Shown: positions 1,363-34,465 of the stretch, in pieces
How positions within the stretch are numbered: the first letter of the stretch is position 1
Layout of the letters: every line of letters starts with the position of its first letter
Source: a virus
Taxonomy: Duplodnaviria; Heunggongvirae; Uroviricota; Caudoviricetes
Reading direction: 5' to 3' (one strand)
Length of the DNA stretch: 34,465 nt
IMG/VR virus record: IMGVR_UViG_2869924733_000010
Program-made: the position numbers and the translations under genes
The notes under the pieces: generated by a model
What the model saw: only the letters and a program-made list of their open reading frames with translations
What the model was told of the DNA's origin: nothing
Database searches by the model: none

Positions 1363-1446
1363 TTAATTTCGATTATTTTTCCCGGATGGAAAATTCTTAG
1401 AAACCGATCACATACAGCTGCATTTATTAAGGTTATCATCCGTTTC

Positions 1447-1533
1447 GCTGAAAAACATAACCCATAAAATGCTAGCTGTACCAGGAACCACCTCCTTAGC
1501 CTGTGTAATCTCCCTTACACGGGCTTATTTTTT
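1447..1533 (+). ncRNA. cyaR: CyaR (RyeE) Hfq-binding sRNA
   Basis: Sequence gctgaaaaacataacccataaaatgctagctgtaccaggaaccacctccttagcctgtgtaatctcccttacacgggcttatttttt matches remembered CyaR, with terminator hairpin and T-run; TATCAT -10 box 7 nt upstream. Confidence 0.8.
1507..1533. other. Probable P2 attachment core (attR) overlapping the cyaR 3' end
   Basis: aatctcccttacacgggcttatttttt is the reverse complement of the 27 nt P2 att core as I recall it; lies between host cyaR and phage ogr. Confidence 0.5.
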
Positions 1534-7044: not shown

Positions 7045-8235
7045 TTAATTGCTGTTAACCGAGGTGACCAGATTTGCCTGGTATTTATCGGTAATACGCT
7101 GGCGCAGGGTCAGGTTTTCGAGAGGAGGCACCGGTGTATAGTCGTAGTCGATATACAGTTTTCCGGCCTTGAGGGTTTCCGCATCGTTGGATTCTTCGCT
7201 GAACCAGCAGGTCGCATCCACGATATAGCCGTTTGTTTTCAGCTCACGGAATTTGGCATTGATGCCGTCAACGATGTCGCGAATCAGCGTTGCGGTGATG
7301 GGCTTGTCCACCGCCCACATGTGCGCCTCAGCCATCGTGTCGGCCAGCACCTGCGCGGTGCGGGTGTAGTTTTCAAAGAGGAACAGCGGGTCATCAGAGC
7401 AGGTACGGTTACCCCAGAAGCGGAAACCGTCACGGCGAATCAGCGTTGTGACGCCTGACTCGTTAAGCAGGTCAGCATCGGTGCCGGACTCCTGCAAATC
7501 CCAGAATACGGACGCGCTGATGCCGGTAACACCGTTCACCCCGACGTTGGACAGCGTTTTATGCCAGCCCTGCTCCTGGTCGATTTTAGCGCGCAGCCCC
7601 AGCGCACGGGCGGTGGCATACGCGGTGGAGGTGGTACTGGTGACCGTATCCCATGCGAGGAAATCCGGCCAGATGACCATCAGCTCACGCTGGCTGAAAT
7701 TCTGGCGGTAGGCTTTCACCTCGGAAATGGTTTTACAGCCCCATGCGCTGATATACCCGAAAGCGCGCAGCTTCTGACAGACTGATGCCAGTGCAACAGC
7801 CACCTCTTTGGTATCCAGTCCCGGCACACCGAGAATGCGCGGTTTAACACCGGTTACCGACTCCGCCGCCAGCAGGGCTTTCAGTCCGGTGTACTGACCG
7901 TTTTCGTCGGTGGTGCCGATGATATTGGAAACGGTCTGCGCGAGCTTCGTTTCTTCGTCGTCGCCGGTGCCGTCTTCCACGCGCACAACAACGGTGACCG
8001 GTTTTGACTGGTCAGCGATGGCCTGTAACGACGCCGCCAGCGTGCCTTTTTTACCGGCCTTTGCAATTGCGCTCTGCACATTGGTAATCAGCACCGGTTT
8101 ATTGAGGGGGAAGGTTTCCGCATCTGCATCGCTGGCCGTGCAGACCATGCCGACAATGGCCGTGGATACGGTGGAAATGACGCGGGTGCCGTCGTTAATC
8201 TCCAGCACCTGCACGCCGTGATGATAGTCACTCAT
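7045..8235 (-). CDS. FI: P2 gpFI tail sheath
   Basis: 396 aa, matches P2 FI. Confidence 0.9.
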   Translation of the reverse strand: MSDYHHGVQVLEINDGTRVISTVSTAIVGMVCTASDADAETFPLNKPVLITNVQSAIAKAGKKGTLAASLQAIADQSKPVTVVVRVEDGTGDDEETKLAQTVSNIIGTTDENGQYTGLKALLAAESVTGVKPRILGVPGLDTKEVAVALASVCQKLRAFGYISAWGCKTISEVKAYRQNFSQRELMVIWPDFLAWDTVTSTTSTAYATARALGLRAKIDQEQGWHKTLSNVGVNGVTGISASVFWDLQESGTDADLLNESGVTTLIRRDGFRFWGNRTCSDDPLFLFENYTRTAQVLADTMAEAHMWAVDKPITATLIRDIVDGINAKFRELKTNGYIVDATCWFSEESNDAETLKAGKLYIDYDYTPVPPLENLTLRQRITDKYQANLVTSVNSN

Positions 8236-8427: not shown

Positions 8428-8458
8428 GTCTGCTTTGAGCGAGGAGCGGACATTGAGC
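8428..8458 (+). repeat. Copy Z of a ~30 bp conserved motif (core TGA-N11-ACA)
   Basis: gtctgctttgagcgaggagcggacattgagc resembles the minus-strand copies at 14100..14135 and 18095..18130. Confidence 0.5.
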
Positions 8459-8531
8459 TTGGTCTCAAGTATGCTGATTTTTTTTAGCTAATATCTTGGT
8501 TTTTTGATCAATAGGTTGCTGGTCAGACCTA

Positions 8532-9684
8532 AATAGCTGCGCGGAATAGTAGATCATTTTGAGGGAACTTAGCCCGGATTGTGCGATCTGATCAATCGCC
8601 AAATCAAAACAAATCACCAACCGGACTGAGCAATGCCGATCATAGCACCAATTTCCCGTGACGAACGACGCCTGATGCAGAAAGCCATCCATAAAACACA
8701 CGATAAAAATTATGCCCGCAGACTGACTGCCATGCTGATGCTGCACCGGGGCGACCGTGTCAGCGACGTTGCCAGAACGCTCTGCTGCGCCCGTTCCTCT
8801 GTTGGACGCTGGATTAACTGGTTCACGCAGTCGGGTGTTGAGGGACTGAAATCATTACCTGCCGGGCGTGCCCGTCGCTGGCCGTTTGAGCATATCTGCA
8901 CACTGTTACGTGAGCTGGTAAAACATTCTCCCGGCGACTTTGGCTACCAGCGTTCACGCTGGAGTACAGAACTGCTGGCAATAAAAATCAATGAGATAAC
9001 CGGTTGCCAGTTAAATGCCGGAACCGTTCGCCGCTGGTTGCCGTCTGCGGGGATTGTGTGGCGAAGGGCTGCGCCAACTCTGCGTATCCGTGACCCGCAT
9101 AAAGATGAAAAGATGGCAGCAATCCATAAAGCACTGGACGAATGCAGCGCAGAGCATCCGGTCTTTTATGAAGATGAAGTGGATATCCATCTTCATCCCA
9201 AAATCGGTGCGGACTGGCAACTGCGCGGACAGCAAAAACGGGTGGTCACGCCGGGACAGAATGAAAAATATTATCTGGCCGGAGCGCTGCACAGCGGGAC
9301 AGGTAAAGTCAGCTATGTGGGCGGCAACAGCAAAAGTTCGGCGCTGTTCATCAGCCTGCTGAAGCGGCTTAAAGCGACATACCGTCGGGCGAAAACCATC
9401 ACGCTGATCGTGGACAACTACATTATCCACAAAAGCCGGGAAACACAGAGCTGGCTGAAGGAGAACCCGAAGTTCAGGGTCATTTATCAGCCGGTTTACT
9501 CGCCATGGGTGAATCATGTTGAACGGCTATGGCAGGCACTTCACGACACAATAACGCGTAATCATCAGTGCCGCTCAATGTGGCAACTGTTGAAAAAAGT
9601 TCGCCATTTTATGGAAACCGTCAGCCCATTCCCCGGAGGCAAACATGGACTGGCAAAAGTGTAGCGGTATTAAGCGCAGCTATT
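8532..9684 (+). mobile_element. IS630, complete (1153 bp), TA target duplication in a CTAG context
   Basis: Terminal inverted repeats aatagctgcgc / gcgcagctatt; TA at 8530..8531 and 9685..9686; reconstructed target gaccTAggat. Confidence 0.85.
8633..9664 (+). CDS. IS630 transposase (DDE, Tc1/IS630 family)
   Basis: 343 aa ORF recognised as IS630-family transposase. Confidence 0.85.
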   Translation: MPIIAPISRDERRLMQKAIHKTHDKNYARRLTAMLMLHRGDRVSDVARTLCCARSSVGRWINWFTQSGVEGLKSLPAGRARRWPFEHICTLLRELVKHSPGDFGYQRSRWSTELLAIKINEITGCQLNAGTVRRWLPSAGIVWRRAAPTLRIRDPHKDEKMAAIHKALDECSAEHPVFYEDEVDIHLHPKIGADWQLRGQQKRVVTPGQNEKYYLAGALHSGTGKVSYVGGNSKSSALFISLLKRLKATYRRAKTITLIVDNYIIHKSRETQSWLKENPKFRVIYQPVYSPWVNHVERLWQALHDTITRNHQCRSMWQLLKKVRHFMETVSPFPGGKHGLAKV

Positions 9685-9755
9685 TAGGATCAGATATAAA
9701 AAGTATGATTTTATTCTCCCCACATAGATGAAAAAAACAAAGAAGCATAACTTTT

Positions 9756-10332
9756 ATGACCAAGACAAATAGGCACAACTTTCCTCCAAGCGTTGTAGGT
9801 AAGGTAGCAGAGCGCGCTACATATATTTGTAGCAATCCCTCTTGTCATAGGGTAACAATCGGCCCGGATCAATTGGCGGAAAATCTTTCTATCAAGACGG
9901 GTGAGGCGGCGCATATCTGCGCGGCGAGCCCTGGCGGACCGCGCTATGACATGTCTCAGTCAGAAACAGAGCGGAAGAGCATAAAAAATGCTATATGGTT
10001 GTGCGGAGCTTGTGCTGATTTAGTTGATAAGAATGGCGGTATGGGCTACCCCGCCGAGTATTTGCGAAAATGGAAACGTGACCACGAATCACTAATGAAG
10101 GAGTGCTTGGAGGGAGGAAAGAGGCTAATGTTTCAATTTCTATCGCATCGCCCAGACGAGAAAATTGCTCTGCGGTTGATCCATTTATTGGAAGACAAGA
10201 GTTCTCTTTATCTGCCATATGCTCAAGAGGATCCAGCACGAGTCTCGGATTCTTTGAAGGAGCTCCGACTCTCTCTTACGGCGATTCGCTCCGAGATTGC
10301 ACCTGAGTCTCCGCTATCGTTGATCGTCGAGT
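9756..10332 (+). pseudogene. 5' part (codons 1..192) of an HNH-like zinc-finger protein gene, interrupted by IS911
   Basis: CSNPSCH ... AAHICAASPGGPRYD ... NAIWLCGACADLVDKN matches the HNH pattern CxxC..H..N..CxxC with the last His replaced by Ala; the ORF tail after residue 192 is IS911 sequence. Confidence 0.6.
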
Positions 10333-10667
10333 TGAAGTGGCACACTGAATTTGGCCACCTGAACAGAGGTGATATGCTCACCTCAGAACAACACAGGTGC
10401 TCCAATGAAAAAAAGAAATTTTAGCGCAGAGTTTAAACGCGAATCCGCTCAACTGGTTGTTGACCAGAAATACACGGTGGCAGATGCCGCCAAAGCTATG
10501 GATGTTGGCCTTTCCACAATGACAAGATGGGTCAAACAACTGCGTGATGAGCGTCAGGGCAAAACACCAAAAGCCTCTCCGATAACACCAGAACAAATCG
10601 AAATACGTAAGCTGAGGAAAAAGCTACAACGCATTGAAATGGAGAATGAAATATTAAAAAAGGCTAC

Positions 10668-12796
<2,129 letters not shown>

Positions 12797-12804
12797 CCAC
12801 TTCA

Positions 12805-12983
12805 AGTCAATTGTCCGTGCGTGCCGACACTATATGAATTCAACGCCAGATCGGCCGGGCATTGAGGAGCTTAACTTCTCCCTCGGCGCAGTTCGTAAGG
12901 TAGTAGGAATTAACATCGGAGAACTATTGAAACACTATGAAATCCAGGTGAGTCACGAATTGCATTCTATTATTCCTAAATGA
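12805..12983 (+). pseudogene. 3' part of the IS911-interrupted HNH-like gene
   Basis: Removing IS911 and one AGT copy joins ...IVE to SIVRACRHYMNSTPDRPGIEELNF...IIPK in frame, giving a ~250 aa protein. Confidence 0.6.
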
Positions 12984-13144
12984 ATTTTAACCAATAACTC
13001 AAGTTGGCGAAGCCTGAAAAAGATGAGCTTCGCCATTTTTCTCGGACCTTGAGTAATTAGTGCAGACACAATAAGCATATTGTTTTCGAGTGCACGACGA
13101 ACGTAGTTTTCGATACTTTGAGTATTATAGCTTCAACTTTTTAC

Positions 13145-13930
13145 TTACATCAAAAATAACTTACAATATTTGTAAGTTGCTTTGTGTACGAAAATGCTTG
13201 CGTCAACTCTTGACATCGGATTTTTTAATATCCCTCCGGAACTTCCCTTTCCATGTCTCGCAAGATACCCTAACAGTTCAAAGCTATTAGCAGTGCCCGT
13301 GAATCTGCTGATTTCCTTTTCATCAATATTAAAAGCCATGCTAATTACTTTATCTCTCTGATATTTCTTGCCTTTATAAGCGTCGGGGAAATTTAGTATA
13401 CCTTTCACATATTTATCATATACATATTCTCTAATTGTTTCCCACAAACGATAAAGATTAACCCAATCATAACCTAAGGCACACATACCTAAAACAACAC
13501 GTAAGGATTCATGTTTAGATGATAAATTAATTAATCGTGAAAAATTATCAGCGCGAGGGTGTGGTTGCTGTATGTCATGGAAATTAAAGGGGTTTACCTG
13601 AGTTACATCCATTGATTTAAAGCCGCATATTTCCGAGTAATTAATGCCTTCACTTCCAGAAATAGAAAGAGGACCAAAAGATTGATATCTTTCAAAACCA
13701 TAAAGAACGCTAAGTGCGCCGTTCATGAGCATCAACAAACCTTTTAACTTGGAAGCCAATTCATTTGGGTCGGATATGATATTCAAATGAGGAGATGAAA
13801 GTAAATGAATATCTGTTTGCCCTAAATCAGAGTCAGAATCATCATTTATAGAGAAATCATTCGACCAAACTCCACATAATCCTTTAACAAATCCTGTAGA
13901 TGGAGTAAGTAAAAAACTATAATCGTACAT
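13145..13930 (-). CDS. Hypothetical protein, 261 aa, AT-rich orphan cargo gene
   Basis: Long ORF in low-GC DNA convergent with the HNH-like gene; no family recognised. Confidence 0.6.
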   Translation of the reverse strand: MYDYSFLLTPSTGFVKGLCGVWSNDFSINDDSDSDLGQTDIHLLSSPHLNIISDPNELASKLKGLLMLMNGALSVLYGFERYQSFGPLSISGSEGINYSEICGFKSMDVTQVNPFNFHDIQQPHPRADNFSRLINLSSKHESLRVVLGMCALGYDWVNLYRLWETIREYVYDKYVKGILNFPDAYKGKKYQRDKVISMAFNIDEKEISRFTGTANSFELLGYLARHGKGSSGGILKNPMSRVDASIFVHKATYKYCKLFLM

Positions 13931-14099
13931 AACTCAAATCCCTCTTTTTTATATCCTAAATGGAATACAAAAATTATTGTTTATTTGTTATGTTCAATAT
14001 ACTCACATAACCGAAAACTTTAACACGCTCATTCTAAGTGAACTAAATCTAAAGATATACCTTTGAAAACTGAAAACTCAATGCTGGCAACGTCCGCTC

Positions 14100-14135
14100 C
14101 TGGCACAAAGCGAACATTCCTTGACGTCCTGTCAG
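14100..14135 (-). repeat. Copy X of the ~30 bp conserved motif (core TGT-N11-ACG), ~190 nt upstream of the 261 aa ORF
   Basis: 28 of 35 positions identical to the copy at 18095..18130. Confidence 0.55.
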
Positions 14136-14200
14136 GGAAACCCACCTGGACGTTCAGGTGATTCTGTCGATTATAGTCATAAAAAAGCCGCCCCGGAGGG

Positions 14201-15501
14201 CTGAGGAATTCCCAGAAAACGAGACAGACATAGCATTATGTGATCTACTGATTTGTGCCAACAATTCAATGAGATCACTGCTATGCCTGTTCATAAAGTA
14301 TGTCAGAATTTCTTCCGGGATGCCTTAGCACCATTTCATCAGTACCGACAAAATGCCCTGATGGATGCCACAGTGGCGTTAATCAACGGAGCATCTCTGA
14401 CGCTGACCAGTATCGGACGTTTTTTCCCGGGTAATGCACAAGTTAAGAATAAGAGCAAACGTATTGATCGCCTCATGGGTAATGAGGCGCTCCATCGCGA
14501 TATTCCAATGATTTTCAGGAATATCACTTCAATGCTGACACGGCAGTTATCTTTATGTGTAATAGCCGTAGACTGGAGTGGCTATCCCTCCCAGGAGCAT
14601 CATGTTCTTCGTGCCAGCCTTCTGTGTGACGGGCGTTCCATTCCGTTATTGAGTAAGGTTGTTCCTTCTGAAAAACAAAATAATCCATTGATACAACATG
14701 ATTTCCTTGATTCCCTTGCTCAATCCCTGCCCCCCGATGCCAGGGTTATTATTGTCACGGATGCTGGATTTCAGAGCGCATGGTTTCACCATATTACTTC
14801 TCTGGGCTGGGATTTTATTGGTCGGATCAGAAATAACGTTCAGTATTGCCTCGATAACGCGCCTGAAAGATGGTTAAAAGTGTCGGATAGCCCTGAATGT
14901 AAAACACCGGAATATATGGGGGCTGGAAGGCTGGTTAAAGAAAGGAAAAAAAGCATCCGGGGGCATTTTTACACCTATAAGAAATCGGCAAAAGGGCGAA
15001 AAAAGAAACGTTCGAAAGGTCAGAGTGGTTTAAACAAAACAGACAAAGAACAGAGCAAATCAGCAAAAGAAGCCTGGTTGATCTTCAGCAGTACAAATGA
15101 CTTCAGAGCGCGAGAAATCATCAAGTTATACAGTCGGCGAATGCAGATAGAGCAAAACTTTCGTGATGAAAAGAACGGGCGCTTCGGATTTGGTCTTCGG
15201 GCCAGCAAAAGTCGTTCAACAGGAAGAATTCTGGTTCTGAGTCTGCTGGCAACGTTGAGCACTATCGTAATGTGGTTACTCGGTTATCACGCTGAAAATA
15301 AAGGGTTACACCTGAAATATCAGGCTAACAGCATTAAATCCCGGCGGGTTATCTCATATCTGACGTTAGCGAAGAATGTTCTTCGACACTCGCCACTTAT
15401 TTTAAGACGAACAGTACTGAGCACAGTTCTAAACCATCTGTCCAGAACCTACCGAAATATGGTGCTGGTTTATTAGCAGTAATTTTGTGGGGATCCCTCA
15501 G
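14201..15501 (+). mobile_element. IS10-like element (IS4 family), 9 bp duplication CCCGGAGGG
   Basis: Ends CTGAGGAATTCCCA / CTGAGGGATCCCCA (inverted); duplication at 14192..14200 and 15502..15510. Confidence 0.8.
14253..15476 (+). CDS. IS10-like transposase
   Basis: 407 aa; KRIDRLMGN, VTDAGFQSAWF and YSRRMQIEQNFRDEK align with IS10 transposase. Confidence 0.8.
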   Translation: MCQQFNEITAMPVHKVCQNFFRDALAPFHQYRQNALMDATVALINGASLTLTSIGRFFPGNAQVKNKSKRIDRLMGNEALHRDIPMIFRNITSMLTRQLSLCVIAVDWSGYPSQEHHVLRASLLCDGRSIPLLSKVVPSEKQNNPLIQHDFLDSLAQSLPPDARVIIVTDAGFQSAWFHHITSLGWDFIGRIRNNVQYCLDNAPERWLKVSDSPECKTPEYMGAGRLVKERKKSIRGHFYTYKKSAKGRKKKRSKGQSGLNKTDKEQSKSAKEAWLIFSSTNDFRAREIIKLYSRRMQIEQNFRDEKNGRFGFGLRASKSRSTGRILVLSLLATLSTIVMWLLGYHAENKGLHLKYQANSIKSRRVISYLTLAKNVLRHSPLILRRTVLSTVLNHLSRTYRNMVLVY

Positions 15502-15659
15502 CCCGGAGGGACGGCTATAAACTCGCCAGTTAACAAGCTGATTTTACCGCTTACGCGGTTCTGTCGTTGCGGTGTTCGCTGACCCACTGCGCCTTTACAG
15601 TTTATCGCTTATGAATCCATGAGCCTTAAATGTCCTGACAAAATCCTCATAGCGCGCAA

Positions 15660-16277
15660 TCATCCCCCCGATGTTTCACGCACATTTTGCTGATGAAAGC
15701 GGAAGTTTGCCTCCGATTCAACACTCTTACTCTTCCAGTCATGGGGAAGGCTTAGCATCACTGGCTTTCTGTTCGGGTAATCAACACTCATAAATGGTAG
15801 CGTACTATCTACGTATGCGGTCATAGCGTCCAAAAAAGCGTCTTTCGCACCATTCACTTCAGTATTGAATAACCGATACTTTTCACCGCTAAATTTTTCA
15901 GCTTTTTCAATGTTTAAGCAAACATCTTGCCGTATACCGCTCAGGTAGCTCTGCTCAACCCATTGAGTAGTATCCTCATAAGGCAGCAATTCAAGGATCT
16001 GGTCGATTATCTTCAGATCATGTTCATCTTGCTTTTTTTTTACAGGGTCCTCAGTAGATTCATTGGATGTGTGGTAAACGTTGGTGGTCTGATTAATATC
16101 CCGCCCGGCCTGGTTCACATCACCCTCGGTTTTCTTTGCCTTCTGTTTTATGTTGTTTTGCTGTCTGATTCTATATGTAACACCGCCCCCAATACCAAAC
16201 AGTGCCAGTACGCCGACTAATAAGCTAAGATAGGTAGCTGCGTCTGCACCAAAATGTGCATTAAGCCATTCAGTCAT
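15660..16277 (-). CDS. Hypothetical membrane-anchored protein, 205 aa (N-terminal TM helix), cargo gene
   Basis: Hydrophobic segment YLSLLVGVLALFGIGGGV then a polar ~170 aa domain; stop codon sits directly on a G6 run, so the 3' end is uncertain. Confidence 0.55.
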   Translation of the reverse strand: MTEWLNAHFGADAATYLSLLVGVLALFGIGGGVTYRIRQQNNIKQKAKKTEGDVNQAGRDINQTTNVYHTSNESTEDPVKKKQDEHDLKIIDQILELLPYEDTTQWVEQSYLSGIRQDVCLNIEKAEKFSGEKYRLFNTEVNGAKDAFLDAMTAYVDSTLPFMSVDYPNRKPVMLSLPHDWKSKSVESEANFRFHQQNVRETSGG

Positions 16278-16363
16278 TTGAACTATGTCCTTACAGTGTG
16301 AGTAAGGATTATAATAACAGAGCTAACTTGCGCAGAAACGAAAAAAGGCAGGTGGATTTGCCC

Positions 16364-17269
16364 CTATATTTCCAGACATCTGTTATCACTTAACCCATTA
16401 CAAGCCCGCTGCCGCAGATATTCCCGTGGCGAGCGATAACCCAGCGCACTATGCGGATGCCATTCGTTATAATGCTCGAACGCCTCTGCAAGGTTCTTTG
16501 CTGCCGTTAACCCGTCTGGTTTGGGCATGATACTGATGTAGTCACGCTTTATCGTTTTCACGAAGCTCTCTGCTATTCCGTTACTCTCCGGACTCCGCAC
16601 CGCCGTGTTCTTCGGTTCAAGTCCCAACATCCGGGCGAACTGGCGTGTTTCATTAGCCCGGTAGCATGAACCATTATCCGTCAGCCACTCCACTGGAGAC
16701 GACGGAAGATCGTTGCCGAAGCGGCGTTCCACCGCTCCCAGCATGACGTCCTGTACTGTTTCACTGTTGAAGCCGCCGGTAGTCACCGCCCAGTGCAGTG
16801 CCTCACGATCACAGCAGTCCAGCGCGAACGTGACACGCAGTCTCTCTCCGTTATCACAGCAGAACTCGAACCCGTCAGAGCACCATCGCTGATTGCTTTC
16901 TTTCACGGCCACTCTGCCTGTATGTGCCCGTTTCGATGGCGGTACAGCAGGTTTTCGCTCAAGCAACAGCGCATTCTGGCGCATGATCCGGTAAACACGT
17001 TTGGCATTGTTCGCAGGCATACCATCAAGTTCTGCCTGTCTGCGAAGCAGCGCCCATACCCGACGATAACCATACGTGGGCAGCTCTCCGATAACATGGT
17101 GTATACGGAGAAGCACATCCGTATCATCAGTGTGACGACTGCGGCGGCCATCCATCCAGTCATCGGTTCGTCTGAGAATGACGTGCAACTGCGCACGCGA
17201 CACCCGGAGACAACGGCTGACTAAGCTTACTCCCCATCCCCGGGCAATAAGGGCGCGTGCGCTATCCAC
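16364..17269 (-). CDS. insD: IS2 transposase InsD
   Basis: 301 aa, recognised as IS2 InsD. Confidence 0.9.
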
Positions 17270-17592
17270 TTTTTTGCCCGTCCATATTCAACGGCTTCTT
17301 TGAGGAGTTCATTTTCCATCGTTTTCTTGCCGAGCAGGCGCTGGAGTTCTTTAATCTGCTTCATGGCGGCAGCAAGTTCAGAGGCAGGAACAACCTGTTC
17401 TCCGGCGGCCACAGCAGTAAGACTTCCTTCCTGGTATTGCTTACGCCAGAGAAATAACTGGCTGGCTGCTACACCATGTTGCCGGGCAACGAGGGAGACC
17501 GTCATCCCCGGTTCAAAGCTCTGCTGAACAATTGCGATCTTTTCCTGTGTGGTACGCCGTCTGCGTTTCTCCGGCCCTAAGACATCAATCAT
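17227..17592 (-). CDS. insC: IS2 InsC
   Basis: 121 aa from internal Met [13 protein letters not shown]. Confidence 0.85.
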
Positions 17593-18094
17593 CTGTACTC
17601 CAATGACTAGTCTAAAAACTAGTATTAAGACTATCACTTATTTAAGTGATACTGGTTGTCTGGAGATTCAGGGGGCCAGTCTAGCAGGGGAGGTAACCCC
17701 CCTGCCTTTAATCAAGTTCCTCCATCCCTTACGGGCGTCCGGTCAGTTGCTTGATGACAACCAGACCAGCTAGCATTATTTGCATCACCAGTAAGACTGT
17801 TGTTAGCGTTATCACTTCGACGTCTCCTCTTCCAGGAGAGCGCCACACGTAGTAAGTGCTTTTGGTTCTACCCGCCCCCCTCACTCCGCATACCATTAGT
17901 TAGCAGGTACAAGCAGCACTCTTTCGTGTGGTAAGCAAACAGGACAGCACTGGACTGACGCCTTGAGCTTTAATATTTCCTTCCGATCCATACAACTAGG
18001 TCTGTTAAAAGCCCCTAGGACGAATTCTACAGAGATGGCTATGGTGCAGGTTTCGGCTATAGGGCTCTTTGATGTAATCGAGGGTCATAACGTT

Positions 18095-18130
18095 GGCAAT
18101 GTCTGCTCCTGGCACAGAGCGGACTATCAG
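18095..18130 (-). repeat. Copy Y of the ~30 bp conserved motif (core TGT-N11-ACA), just downstream of the G stop
   Basis: ggcaatgtctgctcctggcacagagcggac; overlaps a 9 bp stem hairpin ggcacagag..ctctgtgcc. Confidence 0.55.
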
Positions 18131-22604: not shown

Positions 22605-23230
22605 AGAGGACTCCCGGTTGTGCCGCCGCTGTCGCCGGGGTGTTTATGGGTATGCAGTACCTTACCGTTTGATGAGAGTTCACCGCCGGTATGTTTAATG
22701 TTGCCGCGCATCGTCCCGCCCTTCTGCACTTCCAGCGTGCCGGTAATCAGTCTGTTGGTGCAGACCACCTCCGGGGTGTCCAGGGTGATGCGGGTTGACG
22801 CTTTCACCATGACCACCGGCACCGTGGCAGTAACAGAATCAGAAGCCGTCACGCTGGCCGTTTTAATTCCGCTTACCGTGAGTGCACTGGTTTCGGGTTC
22901 ATACTCAATCACCGCCCCGTCAGGGAAACGGATATGCAGGGCATCCGCCGACGCAGACGGCGCGGGGTTATCGCAGGAATAAATCCCCGGCAGAACGAAC
23001 GCCGTGTCGAGTTCACCGCCCACGGCCAGAATCAGCACCTGTTCCCCCACGGAAGGTGCCCACCATGTGCGCGAACGTCCGGCGCGATGGGTCAGCCACT
23101 GAAGCCAGTCGGTGCACATGCCGCCGGTCTGCACACGGCAGCGACCGGCATTAAGGTCGGTTTCGACAATAATGCCAGTGCGAATCATATTGCGTATAAA
23201 GCGAAGAATTTCATTGTATTGTGCATTCAT
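22601..23230 (-). CDS. V: P2 gpV baseplate spike
   Basis: 209 aa from internal Met MNAQYNEILRFIRNMIRTGIIVETD; ORF track start at 23308 is too long. Confidence 0.8.
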   Translation of the reverse strand: MNAQYNEILRFIRNMIRTGIIVETDLNAGRCRVQTGGMCTDWLQWLTHRAGRSRTWWAPSVGEQVLILAVGGELDTAFVLPGIYSCDNPAPSASADALHIRFPDGAVIEYEPETSALTVSGIKTASVTASDSVTATVPVVMVKASTRITLDTPEVVCTNRLITGTLEVQKGGTMRGNIKHTGGELSSNGKVLHTHKHPGDSGGTTGSPL

Positions 23231-23316
23231 TCGATAATAATGATTCTGTACAATCTCGAAGTAAATCACACCACGATTTCTGGTGCACAGAACAACAAGG
23301 GACAACAAAATCCATT

Positions 23317-23883
23317 ATGAGTACTTACTTTTTCTCGTCAGAAACAATGAAAGAATTGTTCAAAGATTATCTGGTCTTTTTGAACACGCTGACTCCCGGC
23401 ACAAACTTTGAATCAAACAGAAACAAAATAATTGCTCAAGCAATAAACTTCATTTCCGAAAACCCTGAAGATTGGGACAAAAAATCCCAGCACAACATTG
23501 CTATGATTGGCGACACCTTTAAAAGTTTCTTAAGAAAAAAGGGAGAAGATAACAACAGCATCAACCTTATATTCACTTGCTTTTTTAGCTTTATCATTGA
23601 ACCAAGCATTCTCTCTCCGGAAATAGAGTCTCACTTTTCACCACTAAGAACCATCAAGGATTTTGCTCTGTATAACTATAATGAATTCGATGAGCGGAGC
23701 AGAGCACAGATAGACTTTTCTCTTAGAGAACTGCCATTAGCAATGGTTAAAGAAGTTTTAAGCTCCAGCAATGTTGACACATATAAAAAATACATTGATA
23801 GTTTAAACGAAGGGCGTCAATTTTTCGAAAAGTGCGACTCCTTCTTAAAGGAGCAACATGCCAAAATAGAGTCAATCAAATAG
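23317..23883 (+). CDS. Hypothetical soluble protein, 189 aa; first gene of the S-V insert
   Basis: ATG at 23317 (MSTYFFSSETMKELFK...) in low-GC DNA, divergent from V; no family recognised. Confidence 0.6.
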   Translation: MSTYFFSSETMKELFKDYLVFLNTLTPGTNFESNRNKIIAQAINFISENPEDWDKKSQHNIAMIGDTFKSFLRKKGEDNNSINLIFTCFFSFIIEPSILSPEIESHFSPLRTIKDFALYNYNEFDERSRAQIDFSLRELPLAMVKEVLSSSNVDTYKKYIDSLNEGRQFFEKCDSFLKEQHAKIESIK

Positions 23884-23969
23884 TCATTAAAAGGGTATGA
23901 GGTCGCATTTAATTTTGTTGGATTGTTTGAAGGCTTTAATTCACTTGGCAAAAAAAAGAAAGTGCAATC

Positions 23970-24389
23970 ATGCTATCAAGAATAATTCTTATCATCTTGG
24001 CTATAATCATTCCCTCCCAGCTGATATACTATGGAATGCATAAATTACCAGCTCTCGAAACGACAAATGCTGCCACATATTTTATGTCAGCACTACCTTT
24101 TGCATCAGTTACATTGATTTTCATGTATTACTTTAGAGTTGTACTGCTAAATCATATATCGTTACGAACTCAGATTATGCAAATAGAACTCAGAAAGAGC
24201 CTTTGTCAGTTCATTCAGAGTTATAGCGACTATTCCTCAGAGATAAGGAAAAACAATCCGGAAGCGCTTTCAAAATTCGAAGACGTAGTATTTTCAAACA
24301 TCATGCTATCCGATGATAAGATACCATCTACATTTGATGGCATTGAGCAAATAGCATCGTTAATCAATTCATTAAAAAATGGAAAGTAA
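23970..24389 (+). CDS. Hypothetical small membrane protein, 139 aa, two N-terminal TM helices; second gene of the S-V insert
   Basis: Hydrophobic segments IILIILAIIIPSQLIYY and ATYFMSALPFASVTLIFMYYF; followed by a terminator. Confidence 0.6.
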   Translation: MLSRIILIILAIIIPSQLIYYGMHKLPALETTNAATYFMSALPFASVTLIFMYYFRVVLLNHISLRTQIMQIELRKSLCQFIQSYSDYSSEIRKNNPEALSKFEDVVFSNIMLSDDKIPSTFDGIEQIASLINSLKNGK

Positions 24390-24393
24390 TGAT

Positions 24394-24420
24394 AAAAGGC
24401 CAATAACTGGCCTTTTATTT
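24394..24420. terminator. Palindromic bidirectional terminator between the insert and S
   Basis: aaaaggccaataactggcctttt with T-runs on both strands. Confidence 0.6.
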
Positions 24421-24491
24421 ATTAACATGAAAATTCAAAATAAATTATGCTAATCAATTGATTTCTATCTTATATTCTCAGATGATTAAAG

Positions 24492-27146: not shown

Positions 27147-27440
27147 TTACTCCCACAGATTGACAGTTTCAGCCACGGGCGCGGTCTGAACGTCGGGCAG
27201 TTCGACGGCGGTGCCGTGCGGCAGCACGCCATTCACCCACGGCAACCAGAACGGCAGCAGTTCGCGTTTTTTCGCGGCCTTCAGCTCTTTTGAATAAATT
27301 GCTTTCAGTGTGCGCTGGTCTACGGCGAGCTTAACCAGCATCTGCTCATAGACAGTTGCATGTCGCAGCGGGGCTGCTTCCCGCTGCGCGGTCATCGCTG
27401 CCGAGACCCGCATCATGTGGCGCTGTGCGGGACTCGTCAT
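27147..27440 (-). pseudogene. M'-'X deletion fusion: first ~73 codons of terminase small subunit M joined to the last ~24 codons of tail protein X; gene L absent
   Basis: N-terminus MTSPAQRHMMRVSAAMTAQ... is gpM; C-terminus ...PHGTAVELPDVQTAPVAETVNLWE is the gpX end; junction near 27221; the ORF sits between N and Y where M, L and X belong. Confidence 0.7.
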
Positions 27441-27443
27441 CGG

Positions 27444-28515
27444 TTACGCTCCCGGCTCTGCGGTCGCTTTAGCCGGTGTGGAGAAATCACCGACCTTAAT
27501 TTTCTCCACCAGACAACCGGCTGCATAGTCTTCCACCACGTAATCAATGTTCATTGACTCGTAGTTCTCCACGCGGTCGAGTTTCGGGTTTTCCACAATC
27601 ACGCGGCGATGGCTGTCATCCATGTAGTAGATGGACAGGTTTTCCAGCTTCGTGATGAGCATCGCATCCGCCGGGAAGTACGGGACGCGTACCGCCGGCA
27701 GGTTACCGATGCGTTTCTGGCTGATGATGACATCAGCGGCCAGCATTTCGCTGTTGTCCTGCTCTTTGTTGACGATGGGGAAATACTTGTCCGCCAGTAG
27801 CTGACGTCCCACAATCACCACAAGGTCAGGGTCTTCCTGATACCACGGTTCAATCAGGTTGTTGGTCGCATCCATCACCAGTGCATCAAGGCTGGCATAA
27901 TCGCCGCCCTTACCCACGCGGATAACCTCAGAGGTGGTGCGCCCTTCCTCGTCAGTGACCTTGCTCATCACGCGCGCCGGGGCTTCATTGCGGTATTTCT
28001 GCAACCAGCCGACCGCCACATCCTGCAACATCGGATTGCTGCTGCGGTCAGAAGTTTCGGCACGCTTCACGCCGTTAAAACCGGCCATGATGAAATCAAG
28101 GGACTGGCGTTTGATAATGGCGTTACGGACACGGAGCTGGAAATCCTGATAACGCGCCCACAGGTCAAGCGTTTTGTAGCGGATATAAAAATCGAAGTTA
28201 ATCTGGTCGCATTCGTACTTGTTAGACGCCAGCTTCGAGAAGTCCTTCGGCTGACGCTCAGTGCCACCGGCGGTGTCGGTGGTGCTGGCGATGGAGCCGG
28301 TGACACCGATGCCAATTTTTTCCCCTTTCATTTCGCTGACCGGCACAATGTTGATGCGGGTCAGAAAGTCAGAGGACTCCTGCATGGTGTTCATCAGGGT
28401 CTGGGTGACCGACGGTTCAACGGTGAATTTTTTCGACACATCACCGGCGTCGATGCCGTTCAGTTCGGCAACACGGGACAGGTAGGCATTAAATTTAAAG
28501 CGGGTTTCCTGGCGC
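27444..28515 (-). pseudogene. N: Major capsid gene N, 3' portion, cut off from its start codon by IS4
   Basis: Matches P2 gpN from codon 2 on; ATG plus codons 2..5 sit at 29941..29955 on the far side of IS4; in-frame TAG at the junction. Confidence 0.85.
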
Positions 28516-29940
28516 TAATGCCAGTCAGTTAAGCAACTGACTGGCTCTTTTTCGGGGCTGTGGGGTATTTCCAGGGCCTCTCCTTTACCACTCTCGGGAA
28601 GGCCCTTTCCCTTCTCGTCGGTAATTTCACAAGTTGTCCCATACTTGCAAGATCGCGCATCAGCTCCGGTATACGTCCCGGTGAAGCGCCCTGCAATGTC
28701 ATCAGCATTCTCATCACCATTCCGCATGATTCTGAGAAACTCAGTTGATTCGGCCAGTAACCTTTCAGATGTTCCGCCATTTTAATCATCTGATATCTCA
28801 CCAGATTATAAGCCAGTAAGACACCCCACAGCTCTTGCTCCACAAGCTCCGGCTTTTTACTTCTCAGCGTCAGCCTGCTCAGTTGCATCGTCTGTTTTAT
28901 CTCCCTGTATCCCAGTTCGATTTCCCAGCGATGACTGTACAGATCCGCCATTTCTCCTCCGGGGAAGCGCATGGCGTCCGTCATCGACGTCAGCAGATGG
29001 CAGACTTTTCCTTTGCGCGTCACGGTCAGCAGGCGGGCTGTCACTTCATTTCCCAGTCCCGGCCACTTTTTTCGTGCCTGCGAGCTGGTTTTCAGCTTCA
29101 CCAGATGATCGCCTTTACCCAGTTTTCTGAACTCTTCATATTGCGCTCCCTTTCTGAGAGGTATCATCCAGTGGCGGTGTTCTCCCGCCAGGCTCCAGGC
29201 ATTTAACAGTCCCAGTGAGTAATAACCTTTATCCATTAACGTCAGAGTGTTATCGCCGGTTTGTTCTATAAGTTGCTCAGCAAGCTCATTTTCGCTGTTC
29301 TTCATCGTGCCGAAGGCTGCAGCCGTCAGCAGATGGCTGGTCAGTTCCATCTGGCAGACCATTTTGACCTGCGGGTAGAGCGCCGGGTTCCCGGCATGTG
29401 TCTGGCGGGGGAAGGCTGCATCGTTCTCTGGTGTATCCGGTGTGCGCCAGAACACACCATCGATGGCCAGCAGGGTCAGGCCGCACCAGTGCGGATGCGG
29501 CGTGGCGTTATGCCAGAGCTGCGCTGTTTTCGTGAACACGCGGCGGACAGCCTCACTTCCCAGGCGCTGGCGGGCCTGAATAACGGCACTGGGGGCAACG
29601 AAGGGGCGATTGCCCGGCAGCATGATGTCCAGGCGATTCACAATCTGGTGAAGAGGTTCTTTACGCTCAAGCGCCATGCCAACAATACACCAGACCATCA
29701 TTTCGAGGGGAAGACGGCGCTTGCGTAGCGTTACAGTACCTGATTCGGCAAGGCAACGAGAGATGAGTTCGGGGTCGAGGTAATCCCCCAGAGAAGTCAG
29801 TGGGTTACGCAGAGAATCGTAACGGGATACCAGATCAAGAGCCTGTCCAATGTGCATAAAAAATCCGGAAACAAGTGAGCGTTTCCGGATTCTTACACAG
29901 CCACTGGATCGGTCAACTGATCCTTAACTGATCGGCATTA
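28516..29940 (-). mobile_element. IS4 with a 13 bp duplication GGTTTCCTGGCGC
   Basis: Ends taatgcc... / ...ggcatta; duplication at 28503..28515 and 29941..29953; boundaries accurate to about 1 bp. Confidence 0.85.
28529..29857 (-). CDS. IS4 transposase
   Basis: 442 aa, recognised as IS4 transposase. Confidence 0.9.
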
Positions 29941-30013
29941 GGTTTCCTGGCGCATAGTTTTTCCTGAAATTAAGGGTTAATCGTGAAGGTTTTCCCGGAC
30001 TGACTGACGCCGG

Positions 30014-30868
30014 TCAGCAGTTCGTCATCAGGGCGTCACCGCCACCGCCGGTGGCTTTGCTGCGGCGCTGCTGGGTCAGACTTTCGGTGCTGTCGAGACT
30101 GTTTTTCAGGCGGGTGAATGCCTGGCCGGTTTCATCCGCCCTGTCAGTCACATCCTGCTTAAGTGCGGAAAAGGCGGTTTCCATCTCAGCGAGGCGCTGC
30201 TCAGTGGCGCTCAGTTTTTCCTGCACATGTTCAGCAACAGCGGTCACCGCTTCATGCACGTCATTCAGGCGGGCGTCATCGCTGGCCTGTTTGCGGCCAA
30301 AAATGGACTTCACCTTTTCGGTCAGGGCGGTGAACACGGTTTCAGGCAGGTCTTCAAATTCCAGCTCAACGGGCGTTGCCACTGAAATAAGGTTCTCAGG
30401 GCTTAATTTGAAGCGGTTCAGAGGGTTGTGTTTTGCCGTGCGGCAGAACTCCAGAGATTCCGTGCCGAGGCTTGCCGGGTCATCGGTGACGGCCAGCCCC
30501 ACCAGATAACATTTGCCGGTGTTGGCAAAGTTCGGCTGAATTTCCATTGAGGTGTAGACCTTCTGCGCGGCCTTGTTCATCGCGATAAGGTCATCGGTCG
30601 GGGTGATTTTCGCAAACAGCGCCCATTTGCCTTTCAGCGCCGAATCGTCATCAATCTTTTCGGCCTTCAGTTCGACCACATCGCCATAACGTTTAAAAAT
30701 ACCGTCAGGCAGGATGCCGCGCAGATGTTCCAGGTTAATGCGGCAACCATAGACACGCGGGTCAAAGGTTTCGGCCATTTCCTGAATATCCTGCGCACTG
30801 ATGACACGCCCGTCACAGGTGTCACCCTCAACGCCGATACGAAAGAATTTTGAGACTTTTTTTGCCAT
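30014..30868 (-). CDS. O: P2 gpO capsid scaffold
   Basis: 284 aa from internal Met MAKKVSKFFRIGVEGD. Confidence 0.85.
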   Translation of the reverse strand: MAKKVSKFFRIGVEGDTCDGRVISAQDIQEMAETFDPRVYGCRINLEHLRGILPDGIFKRYGDVVELKAEKIDDDSALKGKWALFAKITPTDDLIAMNKAAQKVYTSMEIQPNFANTGKCYLVGLAVTDDPASLGTESLEFCRTAKHNPLNRFKLSPENLISVATPVELEFEDLPETVFTALTEKVKSIFGRKQASDDARLNDVHEAVTAVAEHVQEKLSATEQRLAEMETAFSALKQDVTDRADETGQAFTRLKNSLDSTESLTQQRRSKATGGGGDALMTNC

Positions 30869-31041: not shown

Positions 31042-32813
31042 ATGACCATCACCACAGACACCACTCTTTTGCACGACCCGCGTCGTCAGGCGGCGCTGCT
31101 GTACTGGCAGGGGTTTTCCGTGCCGCAGATTGCCGCCATGTTGCAGATGAAACGCCCGACGGTGCAGAGCTGGAAACAGCGCGACGGCTGGGACAGCGTT
31201 GCCCCCATCAGCCGTGTCGAAATGAGTCTGGAAGCGCGGCTGACCCAGCTCATTATCAAACCGCAGAAAACCGGCGGTGACTTCAAGGAAATTGACCTGC
31301 TGGGACGCCAGATTGAACGACTGGCGCGGGTCAACCGCTACAGTCAGACCGGCAACGAGGCAGACCTTAATCCGAACGTCGCTAACCGCAACAAAGGCGG
31401 GCGTCGCAAACCGAAAAAGAATTTTTTCAGTGACGAAGCCATCGAAAAGCTGGAGCAGATTTTCTTTGAGCAGTCTTTCGAATATCAGTTGCACTGGTAT
31501 CGCGCCGGGCTTGAGCACCGCATCCGCGATATCCTGAAATCCCGCCAGATTGGCGCGACGTTTTATTTTTCCCGCGAGGCGCTGCTGCGCGCCCTGAAAA
31601 CCGGTCATAACCAGATTTTTCTGTCGGCCAGTAAAACACAGGCGTATGTGTTCCGCGAATACATCATCGCCTTTGCCCGGCTGGTTGACGTTGACCTGAC
31701 CGGTGACCCGATTGTCCTGGGCAATAACGGCGCAAAACTGATTTTTCTCGGCACCAACTCCAACACCGCGCAGAGCCATAACGGCGACCTGTACGTCGAC
31801 GAGATGTTCTGGATCCCGAATTTTCAGGTACTGCGTAAGATGGCATCAGGTATGGCCTCACAGAGTCACCTGCGCTCGACCTATTTCTCCACCCCGTCCA
31901 CGCTGGCGCACGACGCCTACCCGTTCTGGTCGGGTGAACTGTTTAACCGGGGACGCGCCAGCGCCGCCGAACGCGTGGAAATCGACATCAGTCATAACGC
32001 CCTTGCCGGTGGGCTTCTCTGTGCGGACGGCCAGTGGCGGCAGATTGTCACCATTGAGGACGCCCTGAAAGGTGGCTGCACGCTGTTCGACATTGAGCCG
32101 CTTAAACGCGAAAACAGCGCCGACGATTTTAAAAACCTGTTCATGTGTGAATTTGTTGACGACAAGGCATCGGTATTCCCGTTCGAGGAGCTGCAACGCT
32201 GCATGGTCGACACGCTGGAAGAATGGGAAGACTATGCGCCGTTTGCCGCCAATCCGTTCGGCTCCCGACCGGTATGGATTGGTTACGACCCGTCACACCG
32301 TGGCGACAGCGCCGGATGCGTGGTACTGGCACCGCCGGTGGTGGCCGGTGGCAAATTCAGAATACTTGAGCGTCACCAGTGGAAAGGTATGGACTTTGCC
32401 ACCCAGGCGGAATCCATCCGCAAACTCACCGAAAAATACAACGTCGAATACATCGGTATTGATGCCACCGGCCTCGGTGTCGGCGTGTTCCAGCTTGTGC
32501 GCTCGTTCTATCCCGCCGCGCGCGACATCCGCTACACGCCGGAAATGAAAACCGCAATGGTGCTCAAGGCAAAAGACGTTATCCGCCGTGGCTGTCTGGA
32601 ATATGACGTCAGCGCCACCGACATCACCAGCTCGTTCATGGCTATCCGCAAGACCATGACCAGCAGCGGACGCAGGCCACCTATGAGGCCAGCCGCAGCG
32701 AGGAAGCCAGCCACGCCGACCTCGCCTGGGCGACCATGCACGCCCTGTTAAATGAGCCACTCACCGCCGGTATCAGCACTCCGCTGACATCCACCATTCT
32801 GGAGTTTTACTGA
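31042..32813 (+). pseudogene. P: Terminase large subunit gpP with a 1-nt frameshift near the 3' end (or sequencing error)
   Basis: From MTITTDTTLLHDPRRQAALLYW; after ...SSGRR the frame is lost at 32674..32678. The alternate frame TYEASRSEEASHADLAWATMHALLNEPLTAGISTPLTSTILEFY runs to a TGA overlapping the Q ATG at 32813. Confidence 0.7.
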
Positions 32814-34016: not shown

Positions 34017-34035
34017 GTGCTTTCCCCGCCTCGCC
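34017..34035. other. P2 cos cohesive-end sequence
   Basis: gtgctttccccgcctcgcc is the reverse complement of GGCGAGGCGGGGAAAGCAC, the P2 19 nt cohesive end as I recall it. Confidence 0.65.
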
Positions 34036-34425
34036 CGCCCGCTTCATGGGTCGGTTTGAATGCAGTTGAATTACAACTACCAAACCAAGCAATCCCTACT
34101 ATTACGCAGAAAATGCATACTGAAATACCTCGTGCAAATTGATGCAGCTAAGTATGCATAGGTTTTATGCCTCAACGTATACGTTATCAAACAGAGCCCT
34201 GTTCAAAAACAGTATCAAAATATGGTAGGAGAGGATAAGCACACAGAAAGAAAATCAGGATGCATGCATATGTCGTTGTTTCATCGTAACAAGCATTAGT
34301 ATATAAATTACCATGTGCTAATTTATGTCTTAAGGTTGCCCCACTCTTTCTGTTAAAAAGAACATCGATAGTCAAAACAAGATTTTTAGAAAAGATACTT
34401 TCCAAATCATCTCTGCATTTATCTA

Positions 34426-34465
34426 AATAGCTGCGCTTAATACCGCTACACTTTTGCCAGTCCAT
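34426..34465 (-). mobile_element. Second IS630 copy, terminal 40 bp only (continues past the window), inverted relative to the first
   Basis: aatagctgcgcttaataccgctacacttttgccagtccat equals the reverse complement of 9646..9684; TA at 34424..34425 after a C. Confidence 0.8.

Follow-up and report, generated by a model that had tools for sequence, protein, structure and literature searches.

The closest described relative of the locus reported here is bacteriophage P2, whose late genes lie in the order Q-P / O-N-M-L-X-Y-K and in which X is annotated as an essential tail gene. Strain K-12 of E. coli carries its own P2 remnant, the ogrK-yegZ segment between cyaR and yegR, which lies at the same chromosomal site (yegQ-cyaR ... 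yegR) as the one considered below. An infecting P2 can take up genes from a defective P2-related prophage; the one in E. coli B, for example, was the source of P2 Hy dis, itself a P2-related phage. The insertion sequence IS4 has a target preference with the symmetric consensus AAA-N20-TTT. Within Shigella, IS1, IS2, IS4, IS600 and IS911 are expanded in all species (PMC7373316), and the reference chromosomes bear 229-348 IS copies each (PMC7373316, Hawkey et al. 2020). Prophage decay driven by IS elements is an ordinary outcome of this expansion.

The window, meaning the whole stretch of 34,465 nucleotides that was analysed, very probably covers the late-gene half of an IS-riddled prophage of P2 type (Peduovirus), which sits at cyaR/yegQ in a lineage of Shigella dysenteriae and is being eroded by IS expansion and the accumulation of pseudogenes. 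It is 100% identical to Shigella dysenteriae CP027027.1 across the 12.3 kb compared, and it is collinear with P2 (NC_001895) in BLAST blocks of 96.5-97.6% nucleotide identity, with the same late gene order and the same attP core. A yegQ-like peptidase U32 gene (1-1362) adjoins attL. The 27-bp core is found at 1507-1533 and again beside yegR, and all of the lesions described here lie between these two intact attL and attR cores. The main landmarks are as follows.

1445-1530, plus strand: CyaR sRNA gene (Rfam RF00112, 100.7 bits), with its 3' end overlapping the attL core
1507-1533: left end of the prophage, with an attL core that matches the 27-bp attP core of P2 exactly, AATCTCCCTTACACGGGCTTATTTTTT
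30017-30868, minus strand: O (scaffold/protease), intact, 98% identical to P2
32813-33847, plus strand: Q (portal), intact

P2-like synteny and identity extend through the late genes, and all late proteins map by BLAST and tblastn. The Q/P/O/N-M side and the tail genes are recognisable, amounting to about 32 kb of prophage that includes most late genes, which is an earlier stage of loss than in the K-12 remnant or the cryptic remnants of Shigella. Full-length copies are present of ogr, D, U, E, FI, G, H, I, J, W, V, R, S, the lysis cassette, O and Q. The intact late genes share 94-100% protein identity with P2 (100% for Ogr), except for the diverged tail-fibre genes H, which departs from P2 in its C-terminal part, and G, at 75% identity. 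That so many late genes are intact could mean that the decay is recent, or that some genes are still useful. The fun(Z), orf30 and old/tin genes of P2 are replaced here by other cargo.

The major capsid gene N, uninterrupted in P2, is split in the window by a complete copy of IS4.

28516-29940, minus strand: IS4, 1,425 bp, in the same orientation as N and inserted after N codon 5
28516-28533 and 29923-29940: imperfect terminal inverted repeats of IS4, TAATGCC.../...GGCATTA
28529-29857, minus strand: IS4 transposase ORF, 442 aa, with Nterm_IS4 and DDE_Tnp_1 domains
28503-28515: target-site duplication, copy 1, GGTTTCCTGGCGC, 13 bp
29941-29953: target-site duplication, copy 2, GGTTTCCTGGCGC, 13 bp
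29941-29955, minus strand: N start stub, ATG and codons 2-5 (MRQET), then TAA
27444-28515, minus strand: remainder of N (major capsid), codons 2-357 and stop, without start codon or ribosome-binding site

P2 bases 4082-4094 are single-copy in P2 and are doubled in the window as a 13-bp exact repeat; such a repeat, lying precisely at both IS termini, is no chance feature. The P2 sequence resumes on either side of the element (P2 1-4094 corresponds to window 34035-29941 and P2 4082-5375 to window 28515-27222). The inverted-repeat arms measure 18-19 nt and are 89% complementary, and a single ORF encodes the DDE transposase, with Pfam matches to PF13006 (E 3e-33) and PF01609 (E 3e-31). Over 100% of its length the element is 99.8% identical to E. 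coli RefSeq copies named 'IS4-like element IS4 family transposase'. The target in the window reads AAA-GCG-[13 bp]-ATAG-TTT. At all five sites compared, a small sample made up of the window and four E. coli copies, the duplication of 11-13 bp is preceded by an A-run and followed by a T-run, each 2-4 nt away, a pattern compatible with the AAA-N20-TTT preference. In the window this site belongs to the translation-initiation region of N. The IS4 of E. coli K-12 and Shigella has the same 442-aa DDE transposase, TAATG... termini, 13-bp duplication and A-run/T-run target, while the window copy falls 1 bp short of the 1,426-bp copies, the run immediately before the transposase ATG being A6 and not A7, which may be a real difference or a homopolymer error. 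Termini, size, the 13-bp duplication and near-identity to the reference all agree with the IS4 subgroup, which is tabulated with -AATR- ends, a length of 1,400-1,650 bp and a duplication of 10-13 bp (PMC2266710, Table 1). Among the best matches is a copy on a pINV plasmid, in line with the IS4 pool described for Shigella/EIEC (PMC7373316).

Read on the minus strand, the native start of N runs ATG CGC CAG GAA ACC and then meets a TAA that comes from the IS4 terminus. At the other junction a TAG, formed by the terminal TA of IS4 and the G of the duplicated target, directly precedes N codons 2-357. The initial annotation, made from the letters of the window, had placed IS4 after codon 5 of N with a 13 bp duplication and had concluded that the native start yields no capsid protein. 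The P2 alignment and the repeat at both termini bear out the former, and the stub that stops after codon 5 the latter. The in-frame TAG that it reported does exist, but at the far junction; the five-codon stub itself ends with TAA. The interrupted remainder is 99.4% identical to P2 gpN. An internal GTG at N codon 27 opens a 331-aa ORF (27444-28439), and a restart product from it would still contain the mature capsid domain; this possibility was set aside, since packaging, completion, tube and early functions are lacking in any case.

Downstream of N a second lesion joins M to X.

27147-27440, minus strand: M'-'X fusion ORF of 97 codons, M residues 1-73 followed by X residues 44-67
27222-27227, minus strand: deletion junction with the 6-bp microhomology GTGCTG; 1,262 bp gone

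Base-by-base comparison puts the junction in GTGCTG, which P2 has both within M (5370-5375) and within X (6632-6637), and the N-M BLAST block overlaps the X-side block (P2 6632-9372, window 27227-24487) by 6 bases at the junction. Relative to P2, the deletion takes M beyond residue 73 (residues 74-247), the whole of L and X residues 1-43. By calculation, junction microhomology of at least 6 bp would be expected in about 1 of 750 random joins. Pfam recognises Phage_term_smal at residues 35-78 of the fusion and Phage_tail_X at residues 71-90, the latter at 21.2 bits, slightly below the 22-bit cut-off. A tblastn search with all P2 proteins found no second M or X segment and no L anywhere in the window. 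The earlier description of a 97-codon ORF joining the N-terminus of M to the C-terminus of X, with the rest of M, all of L and most of X removed, agrees with this comparison, the loss estimated at about 1.2 kb measuring 1,262 bp. The alignment to P2 that it had proposed places both endpoints, with GTGCTG at the junction, and the arrangement that would have spoken against it, M, L and X lying elsewhere, is absent from the window by tblastn, so the deletion reading stands. An IS4-mediated origin of the deletion was considered and rejected, because the junction is 1.29 kb away from IS4 and contains no IS sequence. RecA-independent illegitimate recombination or replication slippage probably produced it, and the in-frame state of M'-'X is probably a 1-in-3 accident and no new gene.

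Further damage was found in the tail, terminase and cargo genes.

6518-7032, minus strand: pseudogene of FII (tail tube), in which a 1-bp deletion at about 6839 turns CGGTGGC into CGGGGC and shifts the frame at codon 66
31042-32751, plus strand: pseudogene of P (large terminase), with one base deleted near 32675, leaving 544 native and 25 out-of-frame residues
3595-6038, minus strand: T (tape measure), G5 to G4, 1-bp deletion at about 5944, frame shifting at codon 33
8450-18100: FI-G cargo region, a 3.4-kb island with four blocks of IS sequence
8532-9684: IS630-family element in the cargo
10333-12801: IS30 and an IS3-family fragment in the cargo
14201-15501: IS4-family element in the cargo
16357-17683: IS2 in the cargo

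All three of these late genes are in frame in P2. The P and FII frameshifts are both confirmed in independent assemblies: the 569-aa product of P is recorded in 41 blocks, Illumina (Logan) contigs among them, and since the 111-aa product of FII is recorded in 162 blocks of assemblies, the latter is not an error of this assembly. The T frameshift was found in this assembly only and may be strain-specific, or a homopolymer or assembly error. The identical 1-bp FII deletion is seen in 8 aligned loci. The deletion allele lies on at least four local haplotypes, in P2-like prophages with differing chromosomal sites and cargo, and in none of 71 matching phage genome records. Its common haplotype has one exact match in 1,556 genomes (BLAST), a count that covers this haplotype only, deletion alleles on other haplotypes being uncounted; counting the allele by BLAST identity band with the window haplotype is confounded by a linked SNP. 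There is only a slim chance that the FII deletion marks a hotspot of mutation, or that it is a 'grounding' mutation, selected repeatedly, by which resident P2-type prophages are disarmed. The cargo island has three genes, at least one of them truncated and another probably frameshifted. E. coli AH65 has a 3.4-kb version without interruptions, and this aligns to five pieces of the window, with IS sequence between them.

Past the right end of the window, the sequence of CP027027.1 runs in the order Q/cos, a 92-aa ORF, an IS630-family transposase, a 243-bp P2 stretch, yegR, yegS and the gat genes. The 243-bp stretch is 100% identical to P2 24598-24356, that is, int residues 293-337 with the attP core. 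The P2 sequence breaks off shortly after cos and resumes only beyond int codon 292, with the IS630-family element at the junction, and this loss was probably IS630-mediated. Measured on P2, the missing span begins at the old/tin position and ends with int codon 292, leaving the last 45 int codons as the residue of the early region. Between Q/cos and yegR in CP027027.1 the 92-aa ORF and the IS630-family transposase are the only called genes, and that prophage has neither repressor nor cox, no gene for replication and no integrase that could be used. The intact int, C, cox, B and A of a functional prophage are accordingly not found there.

Both head-side lesions might in principle be products of mis-assembled repeats, either in the placement of IS4 or at the M-X junction. 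Sister long-read assemblies of the lineage do differ from the window at homopolymer runs, and the T frameshift is unique to one assembly. Yet the exact fusion is encoded on 50 contigs, among them three long-read assemblies as well as Illumina (Logan) contigs obtained independently, the short-read contigs stop at or shortly inside the IS4 boundary as a true repeat insertion predicts, and the 13-bp duplication and target-site pattern are those of a genuine transposition. An assembly artefact is extremely improbable on this evidence. Carriers were defined as assemblies with the lineage-specific 188-aa cargo protein or 701-aa H variant on a contig reaching far enough, and in every lineage assembly that reaches the region N::IS4 and the M-X deletion occur together: the N-to-Y spacing fits the deletion, and N is short or cut at its 5' end at the IS4 position. 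No intermediate, with IS4 alone or the deletion alone, was seen among carriers of the lineage-specific proteins. A less-decayed relative exists in Shigella boydii (AKNA01000058.1). The exact 97-aa protein is deposited as VDG88620.1, named from Shigella dysenteriae. Outside the lineage, the two lesions occur in none of 5,426 complete E. coli genomes, and the exact 48-base M-X junction had no match in one-genome-per-species GTDB contigs, where this lineage is not a species representative.

With both lesions real, the initial annotation had gone on to describe a prophage defective in head assembly whose cargo and tail genes persist, and a stronger form of this would have the tail and cargo selectively retained or domesticated, for instance as a tailocin-like or cargo-carrying element. 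Full-length FI, E, U, D, V, W, J, I, H, G, R and S and the lysis cassette are in keeping with that. The defect is, however, not specific to the head. The M-L-X deletion also hits the tail, X being an essential tail gene; the tube gene FII is frameshifted in all lineage members seen, and T in this assembly; the four IS blocks cut the cargo; and the early regulatory region is gone. A domesticated tail cluster (a tailocin or R-type bacteriocin-like element) would have the full complement of sheath, tube, tape-measure, baseplate and fibre genes along with lysis and regulatory genes, and would be expected to have lost its head genes, O and Q included, whereas here O and Q remain, as does most of N and P. 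Selective retention is thus a highly unlikely reading, and the picture of a head defect with persisting tail and cargo genes is not supported. As judged from its sequence, the element is a remnant with many separate hits, and no prophage from which the head alone has been lost. Another reading, to which we give very little credence, is that selection maintains a functional unit here, either the M'-'X fusion or the entire remnant with its ogr, lysis genes and tail parts, for example as a decoy small-terminase fragment that interferes with P2-like phages on entry, or as a stock of genes with which such phages could recombine. A host-beneficial role that preserves the in-frame stub or the late genes still standing is the only non-trivial reading of the N and M-L-X lesions. 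The fusion is in frame and called at 97 aa in most carrier assemblies, Ogr is unchanged from P2 and many late genes are intact. Against this, the lineage is clonal and conservation of the fusion therefore carries no weight; one join in three would be in frame; several assemblies do not call the fusion and one calls it at 64 aa, after a homopolymer indel; only 44 of 130 small-terminase domain positions and 20 of 60 Tail_X positions are left; and IS4, upstream in the same late operon, is probably polar on the ORF. The multi-hit remnant is better explained by neutral decay, with lesions that would have been fixed by drift in a clonal lineage, and no observation contradicts this reading.

The conclusion that the element cannot make particles holds, and on broader grounds than the N stub, the truncated M and X and the absent L. 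Within the essential morphogenesis set (Q P O N M L X FI FII E T U D V W J I H G R S), P and FII are frameshifted in addition to these four, as is T in this assembly. Lacking repressor, cox, integrase and replication genes, the prophage should be capable of neither excision nor replication, and without the small terminase, the head completion protein, X, the tube and a usable capsid gene neither heads nor tails would be assembled. With lesions this numerous, the induction test for particle release that had been suggested is moot. It is possible that another P2-like prophage elsewhere in the genome might complement in trans.

The IS insertions, IS-adjacent deletions and frameshifts seen here are the same process as the IS-driven decay described in Shigella (PMC7373316). 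A probable parallel is the defective P2-related prophage of E. coli B, a non-inducible P2-type element kept in a laboratory or clinical lineage, but that element retains an immunity and early region able to recombine into P2, and here the early region is absent. The exact pseudogene coordinates (N::IS4, the M'-'X fusion and the P, FII and T frameshifts) are of value mainly for annotation. They show that a prophage predictor would overstate the completeness of the region, and the lesions could serve as lineage markers. They place target-site-specific IS4 transposition and microhomology-mediated deletion, both textbook processes, cleanly side by side; no new question of phage or host biology is opened by the N and M-L-X lesions.

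The window is read from the left attachment site of a P2-type prophage and shares 96.5–97.6% nucleotide identity with P2 (NC_001895) in five collinear blocks. The late genes occupy the minus strand and keep the canonical order: ogr, D, U, T, E, FII, FI, cargo, G, H, I, J, W and V, followed by cargo, S, R, lysC/B/A, K, Y, an M'-'X fusion, N and O. The leftmost gene is, by its size and position, presumably E. coli yegQ. The attL core overlaps cyaR (window 1445–1533): the P2-type integration site lies within the 3' end of cyaR, which is regenerated by phage sequence. Landmarks of the layout are as follows.

1–1362, peptidase U32 protein, 453 aa
1445–1530, CyaR sRNA gene (Rfam, 100.7 bits)
1507–1533, 27-bp P2 att core (attL)
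after O, plus strand, P and Q
near 34017–34035, cos

The initial annotation placed an IS4 element after codon 5 of the major capsid gene N, with a 13 bp duplication, and the junction sequence bears out both points exactly. The P2 blocks flanking 28516–29940 overlap by P2 bases 4082–4094, so that 13 bases are duplicated; the duplication, GGTTTCCTGGCGC, is found at either end of IS4 (28503–28515 and 29941–29953). The insert is 1,425 bp long, is bounded by TAATGCC.../...GGCATTA with imperfect inverted repeats of 18–19 nt, and encodes a 442-aa transposase with Nterm_IS4 and DDE_Tnp_1 domains. Over its full length it is 99.8% identical to E. coli copies annotated as IS4, each of 1,426 bp. The absent base falls in a run of A residues immediately before the transposase ATG (29857–29863), where A6 replaces the A7 of the E. 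coli copies and of the sister assembly CP026824.1, which accounts for the difference in length. The 448-aa transposase start used in RefSeq annotation of other IS4 copies is probably out of frame in this one.

Read on the minus strand, N begins ATG CGC CAG GAA ACC and then meets TAA from the IS4 terminus. At the opposite junction the terminal TA of IS4 and the duplicated G form an in-frame TAG immediately ahead of N codons 2–357. The TAG reported earlier is therefore present, but the five-codon stub actually ends at TAA. The target reads AAA-GCG-(13 bp)-ATAG-TTT, or AAA-N20-TTT, and four other IS4 copies examined in E. coli likewise have an A-run and a T-run lying a few bases beyond a duplication of 11–13 bp. 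AAA-N20-TTT is the consensus of the IS4 target in the early IS4 literature, and the insertion site fits this preference. Duplications of 10–13 bp and strongly conserved target arms are described for the IS4 subgroup (PMC2266710, a review of the IS4 family).

Base-by-base comparison with P2 confirmed that the N-terminus of M is fused to the C-terminus of X in a 97-codon ORF (27147–27440), composed of M codons 1–73 and X codons 44–67. The window tracks M to ...AAT GGC GTG CTG and then continues in X with CCG CAC GGC ACC... Aligning the region to P2, the proposed means of locating endpoints and microhomology, places the hexamer GTGCTG at the junction and at both parental sites (P2 5370–5375 and 6632–6637). 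The rest of M, all of L and most of X are gone, the loss relative to P2 being 1,262 bp where about 1.2 kb had been claimed. Searches with all P2 proteins (tblastn) found no L and no additional M or X in the whole window, and hence no other arrangement of these genes within it. In P2 the reading frames of M and X differ by two, and the join happens to be in frame because 1,262 = 3n+2. Of the small-terminase domain Pfam detects the first 44 positions in the fusion, and of Tail_X the last 20, the latter scoring just under the gathering cut-off (21.2 vs 22 bits). Because the junction is 1.29 kb from IS4 and free of IS sequence, the deletion is an event separate from the IS4 insertion, and we infer that it was microhomology-mediated.

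The same P2 comparison revealed further lesions. In P (large terminase) a 1-bp deletion near 32675 (window 32670–32680, GGCGCTG to GGCCTG) shifts the frame at codon 545, giving a 569-aa product of 544 native and 25 foreign residues. The identical product occurs in 41 assembly blocks, and since Illumina-derived contigs are among them the mutation is real; it is fixed in the lineage. FII (tail tube) has lost one T at about 6839 (window 6835–6850, CGGTGGC to CGGGGC) and is split at codon 66. T (tape measure) has G4 for G5 at about 5944 (window 5940–5948) and a frameshift at codon 33. The frameshifted T product is found only in CP027027.1, T being full-length (815 aa) in an NCTC assembly of the same lineage, and all differences between a sister assembly and the window are at homopolymers or are two SNPs. 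The T lesion is treated as uncertain: it may be strain-specific or a homopolymer assembly error.

Cargo occupies two places. The FI-G region fills the moron slot that is occupied by fun(Z) in P2; at the position of P2 orf30 (window 23200–24487) unrelated cargo is found instead.

8450–18100, FI-G cargo region, an island of 3.4 kb with three hypothetical genes (one is DUF6650)
8532–9684, IS630-family element in the island
10333–12801, IS30 plus an IS3-family fragment in the island
14201–15501, IS4-family element in the island, where flanking alignment blocks overlap by 9 bp
16357–17683, IS2 in the island
23317–23883, plus strand, 188-aa ORF
23970–24389, plus strand, 139-aa ORF

The same island is uninterrupted in E. 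coli AH65, where its three hypothetical genes have a type I R-M system on one side and an Ag43 gene on the other. The AH65 island stands outside any P2 context. Compared with it, one FI-G cargo gene is truncated (222 vs 250 aa) and another, whose alignment contains two indels, is shorter (205 vs 227 aa). One extra IS630 copy lies near G in the NCTC sister assembly, so IS elements are still active. Neither the 188-aa nor the 139-aa ORF matched Pfam; NCBIfam was searched with the 188-aa ORF alone, again without a match. The 188-aa protein is almost confined to S. dysenteriae and S. boydii records.

The window ends 430 bp beyond cos. CP027027.1 matches it at 100% identity across the 12.3 kb compared, and its locus L012 extends past the right end. 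Following Q and cos, L012 contains a 92-aa ORF, an IS630-family transposase, and then 243 bp 100% identical to P2 24598–24356, comprising int residues 293–337, the P' arm and the att core; yegR, yegS and the gat genes lie beyond.

L012 13146–14780 (CP027027.1), early-region deletion zone, with the last 45 int codons and the attR core, adjoining yegR

Both att cores are still present. The lost segment begins at the old/tin position, takes in A, B, cox and C, and ends at int codon 292; the IS630-family element sits at the junction. The prophage cannot be induced, excised or replicated. The 92-aa ORF (34187–34465) starts exactly at the window end and abuts the IS630-family element, and for this reason is probably a truncated cargo gene. 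Outside the window, host genes that neighbour the remnant are split in one or other assembly (loci L012 17534–18575 and L011 20755–21710): a zinc alcohol dehydrogenase-family gene, which in L012 is in 159-aa and 193-aa parts, and a gatZ-like gene. These splits are consistent with general lineage pseudogenisation or assembly indels.

A protein identical to the fusion is on record as 'small terminase subunit [Shigella dysenteriae]' (VDG88620.1), and 50 contigs carry it. The comparison covered those carriers of the lineage-specific 188-aa cargo protein or of the 701-aa H variant whose contigs extend into the region; three of them are long-read assemblies (CP027027.1, CP026824.1 and UYIS01000021.1). 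All have the N-to-Y spacing of the M-X deletion together with a short or 5'-cut N; IS4 is called beside N in the long-read assemblies, and the 97-aa fusion is called in most. No intermediate with one lesion only was seen among these carriers, and neither junction was found in any of 5,426 complete E. coli genomes. IS1, IS2, IS4, IS600 and IS911 are expanded in all Shigella species, with 229–348 IS copies per reference chromosome (PMC7373316), and the absence from E. coli fits this expansion.

The remnant is very probably best explained by ordinary decay, in which a cryptic prophage took many hits in a clonal pathogen with expanded IS elements. The initial annotation's reading, a head defect with cargo and tail genes persisting, is only partly borne out: X is listed as an essential tail gene in the P2 record, so the M-L-X deletion affects the tail as well as the head, FII and P are frameshifted, and the cargo island is split. 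The lesions in FII and X, the broken island and the retention of head genes contradict a domesticated or selectively kept tail-and-cargo element. Assembly artefact is excluded, as independent assemblies carry the lesions. A functional M'-'X protein or a reservoir role has nothing in its favour except that the join is in frame and that many late genes survive. The components are all of known kinds, namely IS4, P2, microhomology-mediated deletion and IS-driven pseudogenisation in Shigella. At the same site E. coli K-12 carries a P2 remnant in a more advanced state of decay. We found no paper on this particular remnant, which is not new in kind.

The FII deletion extends further. It is identical in eight aligned loci (L018–L025, around 8001–8015), and the 111-aa downstream product occurs in 162 assembly blocks. 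The intact allele is the one present in each of the 71 matching phage genome records, and of the 1,556 complete E. coli genomes in which a P2-type FII is present, a single one matches the deletion allele exactly. The recurrence of the deletion may reflect a mutational hotspot, spread by recombination or selection, and this frameshift, though rare, is the one point that might deserve a further look. The same deletion lies on at least four local haplotypes, in P2-like prophages at different chromosomal sites and with different cargo.
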